DNA of 64,000 nucleotides from a virus: IMG/VR virus record IMGVR_UViG_3300022752_003639, positions 1 to 64,000 of that record; one strand, 5' to 3'. The position numbers and the translations under genes are program-made. How positions within the stretch are numbered: position 1 is the first letter of the stretch; each line of letters starts with the position of its first letter. The notes under the pieces were generated by a model. That model ran no database searches and was not told the DNA's origin. It saw nothing but the letters and a program-made list of their open reading frames with translations. Below are positions 11,273-51,292 of this stretch, piece after piece.

Positions 11273-11301
11273 TTGACATACTAGCAACAAACTAATATAA
11301 T
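11273..11301 (+). promoter_or_regulatory. Sigma70 promoter for tRNA cluster
   Basis: TTGACA-17 nt-TATAAT. Confidence 0.85.
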
Positions 11302-11428: not shown

Positions 11429-11518
11429 GCCTGGGTGGTGAAATAGGTAGACACAAGGGACTTAAAATCCCTCGCTTCCGAAAGGGGCATGCCGGTTCGA
11501 GTCCGGCCCTAGGCACCA
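11429..11518 (+). tRNA. tRNA-Leu(UAA)
   Basis: GCCTGGG/CCTAGGC acceptor, AGGGA-CT-TAA-AA-TCCCT anticodon arm, long V arm, encoded CCA. Confidence 0.95.
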
Positions 11519-11526
11519 GTTTTACA

Positions 11527-11605
<79 letters not shown>

Positions 11606-21727: not shown

Positions 21728-21796
21728 TCTGACAAATAAATATGAATGTCACATAACGGTGACAAATTAAGCGTACCGCGTAAGGAAGGAAATATA

Positions 21797-22486
21797 ATGT
21801 CTTATAATAAAACTAAAACAGACCCTGATCTTGGTCGTCGTATTCATGAACATTTGGTAAAATGCGGAGTAGAAACTCCTACTAGTGAACGAACCTTTAT
21901 AATAGATCGTAAAGGTAAAATTGAAGTAATTGAGCAATTGTTTTCTCAAATAATGAAGGCTCTTGATCTAGATTTATCAGATGATAGTCTAGCAGAAACA
22001 CCAAAGCGTGTGGCCAAGATGTATGTAAATGAAATCTTCTGGGGGTTAGATTGGGAAGCATTTCCTAAATGTACCACAGTGGACAATAAAATGAAATACG
22101 ATGAAATGGTCGTAGAACGTAATATTAATGTTCAATCCAATTGTGAGCATCATTTTGTTGTTATTGACGGATTGGCCACAGTAGCATACATACCAAGAAC
22201 AAAAGTACTAGGATTGAGTAAAATTAATAGAGTAGTAGAATATTTTAGTAAACGTCCTCAAATTCAAGAAAGACTTACTGAACAGATATATCATGCGTTA
22301 TCCTATATTTTAGATACAGAAAATATTGCGGTAGTTATCGACGCCCAACATTATTGTGTCAAAAGTAGAGGAGTTGAGGACACAGGTTCATCTACTACAA
22401 CTAGTAAATTGGGAGGAGTATTTAAATCAGATCCCAGTGTACGATTAGAATTTATGAATATTGTAAATTCTTGCCAGAAACGATAA
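21797..22486 (+). CDS. folE: GTP cyclohydrolase I
   Basis: ETPKRVAKMY, SNCEHH, GLSKINR, RPQIQER, HYCVKSRG; start at ATG after AAGGAAGG. Confidence 0.95.
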   Translation: MSYNKTKTDPDLGRRIHEHLVKCGVETPTSERTFIIDRKGKIEVIEQLFSQIMKALDLDLSDDSLAETPKRVAKMYVNEIFWGLDWEAFPKCTTVDNKMKYDEMVVERNINVQSNCEHHFVVIDGLATVAYIPRTKVLGLSKINRVVEYFSKRPQIQERLTEQIYHALSYILDTENIAVVIDAQHYCVKSRGVEDTGSSTTTSKLGGVFKSDPSVRLEFMNIVNSCQKR

Positions 22487-37912: not shown

Positions 37913-37971
37913 ACTTACAAGAAAATTCTCCTCTAAGAGTAATTAAATAATTGTGCTTATGGGAGAACATC

Positions 37972-38319
37972 ATGGTCAACTTTATTTTGAATAGGCACAT
38001 AGAAAAACTACAACAATTTAATAGACAAAGAGGAGTATGGATTAGATTAAGTATATTAGTTGTTATAATTGTAAGTATAATATTGCTAGACTATTTTTTA
38101 AAAGATACTAGTCATTTTCATTACTTTTTAATAAGTTCGGGATTTATCATAGCAGTGATTTGGTGGTATTGGACAATGCAAGTTGTTAAAGAAATTATTA
38201 ACCATAAATATTACGAGACTGAATTACTTAAGATGCTAATTGCTGATATTAGAGATATTAAAAAATCAGTTCATCAAAACATGAGTATTGACAAACATAT
38301 AAAAGATACATATAATTAG
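37972..38319 (+). CDS. 2-TM membrane protein
   Basis: ATG after GGGAG; two hydrophobic helices. Confidence 0.7.
   Translation: MVNFILNRHIEKLQQFNRQRGVWIRLSILVVIIVSIILLDYFLKDTSHFHYFLISSGFIIAVIWWYWTMQVVKEIINHKYYETELLKMLIADIRDIKKSVHQNMSIDKHIKDTYN
38288..38316 (+). promoter_or_regulatory. Sigma70 promoter for queD
   Basis: TTGACA-17-TATAAT. Confidence 0.85.
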
Positions 38320-38324
38320 TACTC

Positions 38325-38393
38325 AGTGGACTTAGACATTCACCCCACTTTAAATATTCTGCATGTCATCAAACTTACTCAAGGAGGCAAGAG
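38325..38393 (+). ncRNA. Candidate structured 5' leader of queD (preQ1-II/III-like pseudoknot)
   Basis: P1 AGTGG/CCACT, loop ACTTA-GACAT, P2 GACAT/ATGTC; imperfect hairpin over the GGAGG SD. Confidence 0.45.
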
Positions 38394-38957
38394 ATGACAA
38401 GATCATCAACATTAGAACTAAAACAAAATTCTGAAACAAGCTTTTCAACATATTATCCTGTAACATACAAATATACCAGTACAAAAGAATATCATGACGC
38501 ATTTCCTTGTGCATATCGTCAATGGCGAGCTGACAGCCATTGTAATATGATACACGGTTATTCATTTTCTATGAAATTCTATTTTGGAACTAATGATTTA
38601 GATGTAAGGAACTGGGCTGCTGATTATGGCGGATTAAAAGAATTAAAAAAATTTTTAGAAGATAAATTCGATCATACATTACTGGTGGCACAAGATGATC
38701 CGGAATTTCAAACATTTAAATTACTTCAGGAGAAAAAATTAGCGAAACTTACAATATTACCTAAATTAGGTTGCGAAAGTCTAGCAGACATGCTTTACAA
38801 GTATGTCAACGCTGTTTATATTCCTGATATGTGGGGTCCAGGCGAAGCAGACAGACTATGGTGTTATCGTGTGGAAGTAAGAGAAACTCAGGCTAACATG
38901 GCTTTTAGAGAAGGTCATAGAGAATGGAATGAGGATTTATTTGCAGGCTTTGAATGA
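38394..38957 (+). CDS. queD: 6-carboxytetrahydropterin synthase (QueD/PTPS family)
   Basis: SHCNMIHGY, DYGGLKELK, FDHTLL, GCESLA, VRET. Confidence 0.88.
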   Translation: MTRSSTLELKQNSETSFSTYYPVTYKYTSTKEYHDAFPCAYRQWRADSHCNMIHGYSFSMKFYFGTNDLDVRNWAADYGGLKELKKFLEDKFDHTLLVAQDDPEFQTFKLLQEKKLAKLTILPKLGCESLADMLYKYVNAVYIPDMWGPGEADRLWCYRVEVRETQANMAFREGHREWNEDLFAGFE

Positions 38958-39143: not shown

Positions 39144-40325
39144 ATGAAAAATGTAGCAGTAATTGGAGCAGGAATAGCAGGAATAACCGCTGCTTATTAT
39201 TTGACACAAGCAGGTTACAATGTTAAAGTTTATGAAAAAGAATCTTATCCTGCTATGGAATGTAGTTATGCAAATGGCGGGCAAATCTCTGTAAGTAATA
39301 GCCAAACATGGAATACTTGGTCAAATGTCTATAAGGGTATTAAATGGTTGGCTCGTAAAGATGCTCCGCTTTTATTAAGACCTAGTTTAGATTGGGATAA
39401 AGCCAAATGGCTAGCTAAGTTTTTATATCATACAGCAAATAATGAATTCGCTAGAAATACAATTAAAACAATTACACTAGGATTAGAATCACGTAAATTG
39501 TATAGTGAGATCGAAAAAGAAGAAAATATAAAATATGATCGGTTGAACAAGGGTATTTTACATATCTATAAAAATGCAAATTATTTCAATGAAGCCATGA
39601 TGTTACAAGAACTTTATGCCCACAATGGGTGCGAATGGCAAATTATTAACGATTATAGTAAATTACTTAAAATTGAACCCGCACTTGAAAAATTTGATAA
39701 CCTAGTTGGAGGTATATATACGCCTAGCGATTATACCGGAGATATTCATAAATTTTGTTTCGAATTATACAAAAAATTAGAAGAAAAATATGATGTTAAA
39801 TTTTTCTTTAATACTGAAATACTATCTATTGAAAAATTATTAGATTACGATCATATCATCATAGCCAACGGCAGTCATGCTAGACATACCAGTAAAATGC
39901 TAGGTGATAATTTACCTATCTATCCAGTAAAAGGCTATAGTATAACAATTAAGTTAGATACTTTGAGCTCATCAGAATCTGCTCCATTCGTAAGCCTTTT
40001 AGACGACGAATCTAAAATAGTAACCAGCAGACTGGGTAATCATCTCAGGGTAGCGGGTACAGCAGAAATAATAGGTGATAATTGGGACATAAGGCAAGAT
40101 AGAATCAATCCACTATTGAAATGGGTTAACAATAATTTTCCTGATATTTCAACAAGATATTACAAACCTTGGGCTTGTCTTAGACCCATGACCCCTAACA
40201 TGCTGCCTATTGTAAAACAAGGTAAAAATCCTAAGATATTTTATCATGTAGGCCATGGCCATTTAGGATGGACATTAGCCAGTGCTACTGCTAAAGAATT
40301 AGTAAGAATTGTTAAAGGAACATAA
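39144..40325 (+). CDS. dadA: D-amino acid dehydrogenase-like FAD oxidoreductase
   Basis: [43 protein letters not shown]. Confidence 0.85.
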
Positions 40326-41257
40326 TGAAAAAAATATTAGTAACAGGTGGAGCAGGTTTTTTAGGTAGCCATTTATGTGAATATCTTTTAAAAAAAGGTA
40401 ATCACGTATTGTGTGTAGATAATTATTTTACTGGAAGTATACAAAATATCCAGCACTTATTACCTAATCCCTATTTTGAATTTTTAAGACAAGATATCTG
40501 TTTTCCATTGTATGTAGAAGTAGATGAAATCTATAACTTGGCCTGCCCTGCTAGTCCTAAGTATTATCAGCTAGATCCTATACAGACCATGAAGACCAGC
40601 ATATTAGGTGCTTACAATATGTTGGGATTGGCCAAACGCACAGGTGCGAAAATTTTACAAGCCAGTACTAGTGAAGTCTATGGTGATCCTCAAATTCACC
40701 CACAGACAGAAGATTATTGGGGCAATGTTAACCCTATTGGGACTCGTGCTTGTTATGATGAAGGCAAACGTTCAGCAGAAACTCTGTTTATGGACTATAG
40801 ACGCAAACATCACGTGGATACAAAAATTGTTAGAATTTTTAATACATACGGACCAAGAGTTGGTATTGACGACGGCCGTGTGATCAGTAATTTCATAGTA
40901 CAAGCGTTAAGAGGAGAAGATATTACCATATATGGTAACGGTAACCAGACCAGGAGCTTTTGTTATGTAGATGATCTAATACGTGGCATGGTATCTATGA
41001 TGGACACCGATTTTTATACCTGCGGGCCGATAAATTTAGGTAACCCCGGTGAATTTACAATACTGGAATTAGCCAAGATTATTTTAGAAAAGACTCATAG
41101 TGTAAGCAAAATAGTATATAAAAAACTACCGGATGACGATCCATTGCAACGTAGACCAAATATAGACATGGCCAAAAAGATATTAAAATGGGAACCTAGT
41201 ATTGATTTAGGTACAGGATTATCATATACCATTGACTATTTTAAATATAGACTGTAA
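40325..41257 (+). CDS. UDP-glucuronate decarboxylase (UDP-xylose synthase type)
   Basis: [49 protein letters not shown]. Confidence 0.93.
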
Positions 41258-51050: not shown

Positions 51051-51292
51051 TGTATAACCCATTAATAAAAGATCTGAGCAAATTAAAAGACGATGATATA
51101 GAACTAAAAATAGCAGAACTTTTTAAAAAATACACAATAGCTGCTAAAATGGGTCAAGGCTTAGTTTGCGAACAGCTCAATATTGCCATATCACATTATA
51201 GAAATGAGCAAGCCAATAGGCACATAGAAAATCACAAAAAACTACAAGAAAAAAATAAAGATTTTGACGACTTAATTAACATAGACCGTTGA
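51050..51292 (+). CDS. Hypothetical protein
   Basis: Start moved to ATG 51050. Confidence 0.7.
   Translation: MYNPLIKDLSKLKDDDIELKIAELFKKYTIAAKMGQGLVCEQLNIAISHYRNEQANRHIENHKKLQEKNKDFDDLINIDR

Follow-up and report, generated by a model that had tools for sequence, protein, structure and literature searches.

A widespread, covarying pseudoknot in the leaders of phage queD-like genes as a candidate translational ON riboswitch

What is the function of the short leader that precedes the queD-like gene of an uncultured phage, and does it belong to any known family of regulatory RNAs? The gene in question (38394-38957, plus strand) lies in a stretch of DNA of 64,000 nucleotides (nt), hereafter the window, which corresponds to positions 1-64,000 of the 138-kb IMG/VR phage contig IMGVR_UViG_3300022752_003639 (G000). 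It encodes a 187-aa protein of the PTPS family (PF01242, E 3.8e-17; phrog_2389 'QueD-like', E 7e-37) with the active-site motif CxxxHGY. A first-pass annotation of the sequence had viewed its leader as a variant preQ1-class riboswitch, with features recalling preQ1-II/III aptamers, that would mediate feedback control of deazaguanine synthesis. We used comparative analysis of related leaders, covariance models and folding calculations to investigate these questions. The leader is almost certainly a real, widespread and uncatalogued phage RNA pseudoknot that controls translation of queD, and we lean slightly towards viewing it as a ligand-sensing ON riboswitch.

The leader is preceded by a perfect sigma-70 consensus promoter, TTGACA-17 nt-TATAAT (38288-38316, plus strand; TTGACA at 38288-38293 and TATAAT at 38311-38316), situated within the 3' end of an upstream open reading frame of unknown product (37951-38319) that comes after clpP. 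Transcription is predicted to start at about 38322-38324, i.e. 1-3 nt ahead of the first helix, giving a leader of about 70 nt, in which an H-type pseudoknot of two helices takes up about 45 nt. The first helix, P1, is formed by AGUGG (38325-38329) and CCACU (38345-38349). Its 5' strand is followed by the loop L1, ACUUA (38330-38334; consensus N-C-U-U, with the C and U nearly invariant), and by the 5' strand of the second helix, P2 (GACAUUCA, 38335-38342), which comprises a variable distal part, then a conserved U, and then C and R. L2 (CC, 38343-38344) ends in the invariant, unpaired C38344, which adjoins the P1 3' strand. Beyond P1 is the A-rich L3 (UUAAAUAUUC, 38350-38359; consensus N-U-A-N-A-A-A-Y-U-C), which includes the sequence TAAATA and should occupy the P1 minor groove. 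The P2 3' strand (UGCAUGUC, 38360-38367) opens with a YGC element with invariant G and C, the C of which lies opposite the conserved U of the 5' strand. The Shine-Dalgarno (SD) sequence GGAGG (38383-38387) and the ATG (38394) follow, all of these elements being on the plus strand. The promoter, P1, the ACUUA start of the loop, the GACAU/AUGUC pairing of P2 and the SD had all been located correctly by the first-pass annotation; P2 as a whole (38335-38342/38360-38367) is longer than that pairing and includes one conserved U.C mismatch. Taken singly, the window leader folds no better than shuffled sequences (minimum free energy (MFE) -14.9 kcal/mol, z -1.22), and the case for the structure therefore rests on comparison with its relatives.

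A protein-anchored search of IMG/VR recovered at least 587 relatives of the queD-like gene, and among the best 80 of these, which are 79-93% identical, the same leader is nearly universal. The exceptions are L017, truncated at the contig end, L075, which is without the motif, L005, which is without the P1 5' strand, and L048 and L062, each with a one-pair defect in P1. The L005 variant (L005:72-130) has unrelated sequence in place of the P1 5' strand, with a breakpoint inside the loop and the remaining leader intact, and could reflect either recombination at this point or a chimeric assembly. In a protein-anchored MAFFT alignment of 61 distinct leaders (A1), P1 is 99.3% paired, with covariation at 3/5 of its pairs, and P2, although the alignment contains register errors, is still 77% paired. 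The two G-C pairs atop P1 are invariant in this alignment, as are the C that ends L2, A3, A7, U9 and C10 of the 10-nt L3, and the G and C of YGC in the P2 3' strand. These unpaired positions, along with the C-U of L1, remain constant while the helices vary.

Parsing 133 distinct leaders of uncultured phage contigs with the structure taken into account extends this picture. P1 is fully paired in 133/133, with AU/UA, GC/CG/UA and CG/UA/AU exchanges that yield variants such as AGCGG/CCGCU, AGAGG/CCUCU, ACCGG/CCGGU, AUCGG/CCGAU and UGCGG/CCGCA. In P2, the proximal pair changes from A-U to G-C in 8 leaders, and the pair adjoining the mismatch is UA in 52, AU in 39, GC in 12, CG in 7, GU in 3 and a non-pair in 1. 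The base or bases before the invariant C of L2 are U in 100/133 leaders, C in 16, UU in 12 and A in 3. A further, model-built alignment of 94 distinct leaders (A4) has 88.9% of its cells paired, as against 35-50% with slid partners, and displays both-sided changes at 10/12 pairs, which 0/500 shuffles equalled. The proposed check, namely covariation of P1 and P2 among queD leaders of related phages, was thus positive for both helices across these 94-133 distinct leaders, and the leader of the phage queD-like gene is indeed a conserved, riboswitch-like H-type pseudoknot.

A gene-independent scan for the motif pattern found at least 120 matches in IMG/VR, 80 of which were examined as loci together with 4 in prokaryote genome assemblies. 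In 82 of these 84 loci a PTPS-family gene, whose product is 33-93% identical to the window protein, lies directly downstream; of the other two, one ends at a contig edge and one is a chance match in a metagenome-assembled genome (MAG) of 63% GC. The link is thus exclusive to queD-like genes, and the loop bases of the leader stay fixed even as the linked proteins diverge down to 33% identity. The CxxxHGY motif is found in 154/157 proteins translated from motif-bearing loci. The covariance model R1 detected exactly one copy in each of 6/6 genomes and no further copy in any of the six, indicating that folE and queE are not under the motif. The genes flanking queD vary widely between contigs, and leader and queD hence behave as a cassette. 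The promoters upstream of P1 also vary in type among relatives: TAAATA occurs within 30 nt of P1 in 79/134, and a sigma-70 match of at least 10/12 in 16/134. Their position just 5' of P1 is constant, so that the element lies close to the 5' end of the mRNA, if not right at it. Megablast and blastn searches of 50,697 GenBank phage records with the locus and two leaders gave no leader match. Likewise, the cultured phages with a homologous QueD (ACP17, BUDD, R5C, Me-ZS1 and phiST) had no R1 match, and in these phages queD abuts the upstream gene with almost no intergenic leader. In the library of papers searched, no description of the element and no relevant work on a phage queD/PTPS riboswitch or a preQ1-IV class came up.

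The P2 3' strand is also part of a second structure, a hairpin (38364-38399, plus strand) that sequesters the ribosome-binding site (RBS). Its outer stem, UGUCAUC (38364-38370)/GAUGACA (38393-38399), lies over the AUG, while inner CUU/AAG and CUC/GAG pairs lie over the SD; the hairpin and P2 have 38364-38367 in common. The CUUACUC segment suggested earlier to pair over the SD does form these CUC/GAG and CUU/AAG pairs, but it represents only the inner part of the larger hairpin. By MFE folding the window hairpin has an energy of -10.5 kcal/mol, of which -2.4 is left with the P2 strand blocked, as against -4.1 for the bare P2 duplex; the knot therefore needs extra stabilisation to win. RNAalifold analysis of the 32 leaders of the window's platform class recovered P1 together with a stem GUCRUC/GAUGRC that holds the AUG and is pairable in 32/32. 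In this class P2 runs into the 5' arm of the sequestering stem, and there is CG<->UA covariation at the common position. In other classes the SD is covered by CCUAUG/CAUAGG, or the AUG by GCCAUUG/CAAUGGC. There are at least three such platform designs, and in each the hairpin that sequesters the SD or AUG draws its 5' arm from the P2 3' strand, as is the case in 133/133 leaders. Across these leaders, blocking the P2 3'-strand nucleotides carries a cost of 4-6 kcal/mol, and the probability that SD and AUG are unpaired goes up from 0.31 to 0.54, with an increase of more than 0.2 in 70 leaders and a decrease of more than 0.2 in none.

The leader is without an intrinsic terminator, which points to translational control, and the use of the P2 3' strand in both structures suggests that knot formation should free the ribosome site. 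On the basis of these folding models, the wiring appears to be that of a translational ON switch with the knot as the anti-sequestering element. A comparable logic is known from the adenine add riboswitch, a translational ON switch working by anti-sequestration, in which the ligand-stabilised aptamer uses a strand that is otherwise paired with the RBS region. The phage leader has this sharing of a strand in common with it, but is an H-type knot rather than a three-way junction, and its ligand is a proposed one. It displays the generic features of riboswitches, namely a conserved structure in the 5' untranslated region, covariation, conserved unpaired bases, a link to a gene of a single pathway and a platform strand in common with the aptamer.

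We propose that the leader (about 38323-38393) of the queD-like mRNA functions as a two-state RNA switch. In the first state it would form the compact H-type pseudoknot of P1, P2 and the A-rich L3, with the invariant unpaired C at the P1/P2 junction; in the second, the P2 3' strand would go over to the hairpin as its 5' arm, and the SD and AUG would be hidden. A small guanine-faced ligand would most likely dock at the P1/P2 junction against the invariant C, candidates being 7-deazaguanines, such as 7-carboxy-7-deazaguanine (CDG), 7-deazaguanine, preQ0 and preQ1, or pterin intermediates, such as dihydroneopterin triphosphate (H2NTP) and 6-carboxytetrahydropterin (CPH4). Binding of the ligand would stabilise the knot and block the sequestering hairpin, thereby turning on translation of QueD, the enzyme whose reaction commits the product of FolE to the deazapurine branch. 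That a ligand exists, what it might be and in which direction the switch works are inferences. An ON switch better fits a substrate-like signal, such as H2NTP or CPH4, or some other guanine-faced compound.

The set of pathway enzymes encoded by these phages bears on the candidate ligands. The window contains folE (GTP cyclohydrolase I; 21746-22486, plus strand), the pathway partner that makes the QueD substrate, and a queE-like radical-SAM (S-adenosylmethionine) gene lies outside the window on the same contig (G000:92320-93183; phrog_2076, E 1e-54; Fer4_12 domain). We surveyed the pathway in 17 motif-bearing records, four of which are 98-100% complete by CheckV estimate. A QueE-like protein is present in 17/17, and FolE in every record searched for it (13 of the 17, i.e. 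G000 and G006-G017). Each of the five records checked (G000-G004) has one PTPS-family gene, with no second such gene that might be a DpdL candidate. Profile searches for QueC in the 17 records gave no full-length match, the only matches being partial and of about 60 residues. A search of the same records for tRNA-guanine transglycosylase (TGT) with PF01702 found none, and TGT/DpdA profile searches of motif-bearing records were negative or gave partial matches only. Single-sequence queries with the Me-ZS1 TGT and phiST gp042, which we take to be DpdA3, also found nothing, these queries being insensitive; a phrog_887 search matched no control genome and is hence uninformative. Phages of the phiST type that have FolE, QueD and QueE and no QueC insert 7-deazaguanine in their DNA by means of the QueD paralogue DpdL and the distant transglycosylase DpdA3 (Cui et al. 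2023, PMC10516641). Here neither was found, DpdL having been sought in G000-G004 and DpdA3 by an insensitive search. Given the lack of a full-length QueC in the surveyed records, these phages can on their own reach CDG at most, and preQ1 is consequently only one of several candidate ligands. The earlier supposition that the phage makes preQ0 or preQ1 is thus not supported by this enzyme set.

The phage proteins themselves constitute a QueD-like subfamily. They have CxxxHGY where QueD has CxxxHGH, and [FY]-R-Q at the site of the canonical first zinc-binding His, so that two of the three expected zinc ligands seem to be replaced. The window protein scores 34.8 bits on the NCBIfam QueD model, against a cut-off of 89 bits. 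In phages Me-ZS1 and R5C, the sole QueD comes from this same CxxxHGY subfamily, alongside QueC, FolE and more genes of the queuosine/preQ0 pathway. An IMP dehydrogenase/GMP reductase-domain gene (L232:34-570, i.e. G000:90853-91389) is separated from the nearby queE-like gene by a second radical-SAM gene and suggests that the phage also manipulates guanine nucleotide supply.

Bringing these strands together, the leader might represent the first phage-only riboswitch class, an ON-type H-type knot that senses a pterin or 7-deazaguanine intermediate (H2NTP, CPH4, CDG or 7-deazaguanine) and gates QueD in giant freshwater phages with only FolE, QueD and QueE; we advance this specific version tentatively, as a possibility that falls a little short of probable. 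Several points weigh against a ligand-sensing ON switch or against the strength of its evidence. Every known preQ1 riboswitch is an OFF switch, and for a biosynthetic enzyme ON control calls for the unusual case of a substrate-like or feed-forward ligand. The predicted switch direction comes from thermodynamic models, which are unable to fold pseudoknots. In part of the major class, P2 and the hairpin overlap by just 2-3 nt, and coaxial stacking, which would amount to an OFF switch, is possible there. Furthermore, the second sequence set was partly gathered with a pattern that fixes some core positions, and because the sequences are kin, the covarying cells outnumber the independent events behind them. 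Even allowing for kinship and pattern-based collection, the P2 pair types are unambiguously varied.

Among the other explanations, the one that survives best, though we consider it unlikely, is a structured leader that works without a ligand, either by protecting the mRNA from 5'-end-dependent decay or by determining, kinetically or thermally, what share of transcripts has an open RBS. It would be consistent with P1 starting a few nt from the predicted 5' end, and a competition between knot and hairpin is inherently sensitive to temperature and folding rate. However, neither role calls for a conserved mismatch and some ten unpaired positions that stay invariant among highly divergent motif bearers, and the strict link to one enzyme family is left unexplained.

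A diverged member of preQ1-I (RF00522; types I-III, e.g. B. subtilis queC, T. tengcongensis and E. coli), binding preQ1 or preQ0 and shutting off queD translation as end-product feedback, is in our estimation decidedly unlikely. PreQ1-I is a knot of the H type in which a specificity C, following U/A, stands before the P1 3' strand, and it has a U-rich L1, an A-rich L3 and a 3-4-step P2 with the SD (2024 review, PMC11625349). With the SD in or next to P2, ligand binding there occludes it. The phage element is likewise a small H-type knot in a 5' leader, with the same order P1-L1-P2-L2-P1'-A-rich L3-P2', a 5-bp P1 capped by a conserved, indeed invariant, G-C, a conserved pyrimidine-rich L1, and a downstream gene of the pathway from GTP to 7-deazaguanines, including queuosine. 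C38344 stands at the place of the ligand-pairing specificity C; most leaders read UC there, as type I does, and some read CC or AC. In contrast to these likenesses, P2 here spans 7-10 positions with the invariant U.C mismatch as opposed to 3-4 bp, L1 is 3-8 nt long as opposed to 2-3 nt, and L3 ends in an invariant UC. The SD is not inside P2 but lies beyond the aptamer, 16 nt past P2 in the window and about 16-25 nt past it overall, and P2 competes with a separate RBS-sequestering hairpin, so that the knot should open the RBS; the feedback (OFF) control assigned to the leader in the first-pass annotation is not supported on either count. The phages, moreover, are without a full-length QueC or a QueF-type route to preQ0/preQ1, and the motif is seen in uncultured phage contigs only, always before a CxxxHGY queD-like gene.

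Searches with the Rfam models also speak against membership in a known family. Rfam 15 gave no match at the gathering score in the window leader or 20 diverse loci, and none of its models, including preQ1-I, -II and -III, matched at E<=10 in three narrow leader regions (window, L007 and L066). Across the whole genome RF00522 gave just noise of 9-12 bits elsewhere, against a gathering score of 39 bits, and nothing at 38318-38373; RF01054 and RF02680 had no match on the leaders. Thus, the motif could work like a preQ1-I-type pocket, but it fails the membership tests that were run, and its assignment to the preQ1 family is not supported. The resemblance to preQ1-II (RF01054) and preQ1-III (RF02680) goes no further than their also being pseudoknotted leaders of queuosine-related genes and, for preQ1-III, an expression platform kept away from the pocket. 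Those classes are HLout pseudoknots of 80-100 nt with 4 (II) or 5 (III) helices, tied to queT and restricted to Bacillota or Ruminococcaceae (PMC11625349), whereas the phage element is a knot of two helices in about 45 nt before a queD-like gene.

Less likely again is a protein-binding operator, in which a phage or host protein binds the pseudoknot to control translation. The precedent is the T4 gene 32 mRNA, where a 5' pseudoknot nucleates binding of the gene's own single-stranded DNA-binding protein, gp32, in translational control. Both are H-type knots at the extreme 5' end of a phage mRNA and upstream of the RBS; the phage element is conserved in such a position in a large phage, and its invariant loop bases could be protein contacts. 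However, its product is an enzyme, QueD, without known RNA binding, and the knot competes directly with an RBS hairpin. Moreover, the motif accompanies queD through very different neighbourhoods, with no conserved adjoining partner gene.

Conservation at the level of DNA, with TAAATA (38351-38356) as a late promoter or with an internal sigma-70 promoter, is very improbable: many major-class relatives do have TTtACA-17/18 nt-TGnTAnnnT across L3 and the hairpin loop, and the C at L3 position 4 tracks the -10 element (83/101 leaders with it vs 5/32 without), but promoters do not explain compensatory changes in two helices, the internal -10 is absent from the window's own class, and TAAATA is found in L3 of only 6/32 leaders of that class and occurs 65 times in the window; such readings fail as sole explanations. 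The late-promoter caveat attached to TAAATA in the first-pass annotation was rejected on these counts and on the helix covariation. As an observation in its own right, the aptamer DNA of the major class (L066:2936-3020 and most 'CCUAUG' loci, e.g. L013, L047 and L073) doubles as a near-consensus promoter: the last P1 base and L3 provide TTTACA/TATACA, and 17-18 nt on, the loop of the SD hairpin provides a TGnTAnnnT extended -10. Its predicted start is at the SD, and it would yield an unregulated short transcript.

The surroundings of the motif provided some further observations. Upstream of the leader, major-class loci most commonly have a HIT-family (histidine triad) gene whose product ends ...GGVRGVIxGQANYK... 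(e.g. L030, L041, L045, L066; L044:1525-1920). A degenerate second copy of the motif (L044:1928-1980, equivalent to L107:1-55; 31 bits) is found about 1 kb 5' of the intact motif and its queD, flanked by the HIT-family gene on one side and a gene for a 309-aa SAM-methyltransferase-like protein on the other. Its P1 (ACCAG/CUGGU) is intact, its L3 ends in UU and its P2 is broken; on account of the broken P2 we read it as a decayed duplicate, which looks as if it was left behind by a gene insertion. The motif and queD (59-91% identity) also occur on three contigs binned to Bacteroidota MAGs, namely L098, L099 (Haliscomenobacter MAG) and L101 (Chitinophagales MAG), two of which share one MAG. These are either a host hint or mis-binned phage contigs; the strong SD and the TTGACA/TATAAT promoters argue against a Bacteroidota host.

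The contig G000 has a GC content of 34% and an estimated completeness of about 35%, and the records of its relatives extend up to 355-383 kb. The window has 5 perfect sigma-70 consensus promoters, against 0.17 expected by chance; apart from the one at the queD leader, TTGACA-17 nt-TATAAT is found at 11273-11301, just 5' of two tRNA genes (11429-11515 and 11527-11602), and at 51289, 52458 and 60402. A fatty-acid desaturase gene (834-1637) is followed by a radical-SAM gene (1638-2510), and the giant-phage relatives have large radical-SAM clusters (G001:220000-237000; G003:65000-74000), with 14 PF04055 matches in the 383-kb relative, most of them within one 17-kb stretch. On the 3' side of queD (39144-41257) are genes for a D-amino-acid-dehydrogenase-like, flavin adenine dinucleotide (FAD) enzyme and a dTDP-glucose-4,6-dehydratase-like member of the short-chain dehydrogenase/reductase family. 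The FAD enzyme (NF009074, 463 bits, slightly below the cut-off) comes next after queD in about 9/80 relatives.

If the reading of the leader as a phage-only class of ON riboswitch is true, it would represent either a new ligand specificity or a reversed logic on a preQ1-I-like scaffold. Should it bind a ligand, the element would be a phage-specific pseudoknot riboswitch with a logic opposite to that of all known preQ1 switches, and it would mean that giant phages meter the pathway from GTP to deazapurines via an RNA sensor of their own. With a length of about 45 nt and over 130 natural variants at hand, the RNA makes the hypothesis directly testable. A bound ligand would also provide a handle on the role of FolE, QueD and QueE in phages without QueC or a recognisable DNA/tRNA transglycosylase.

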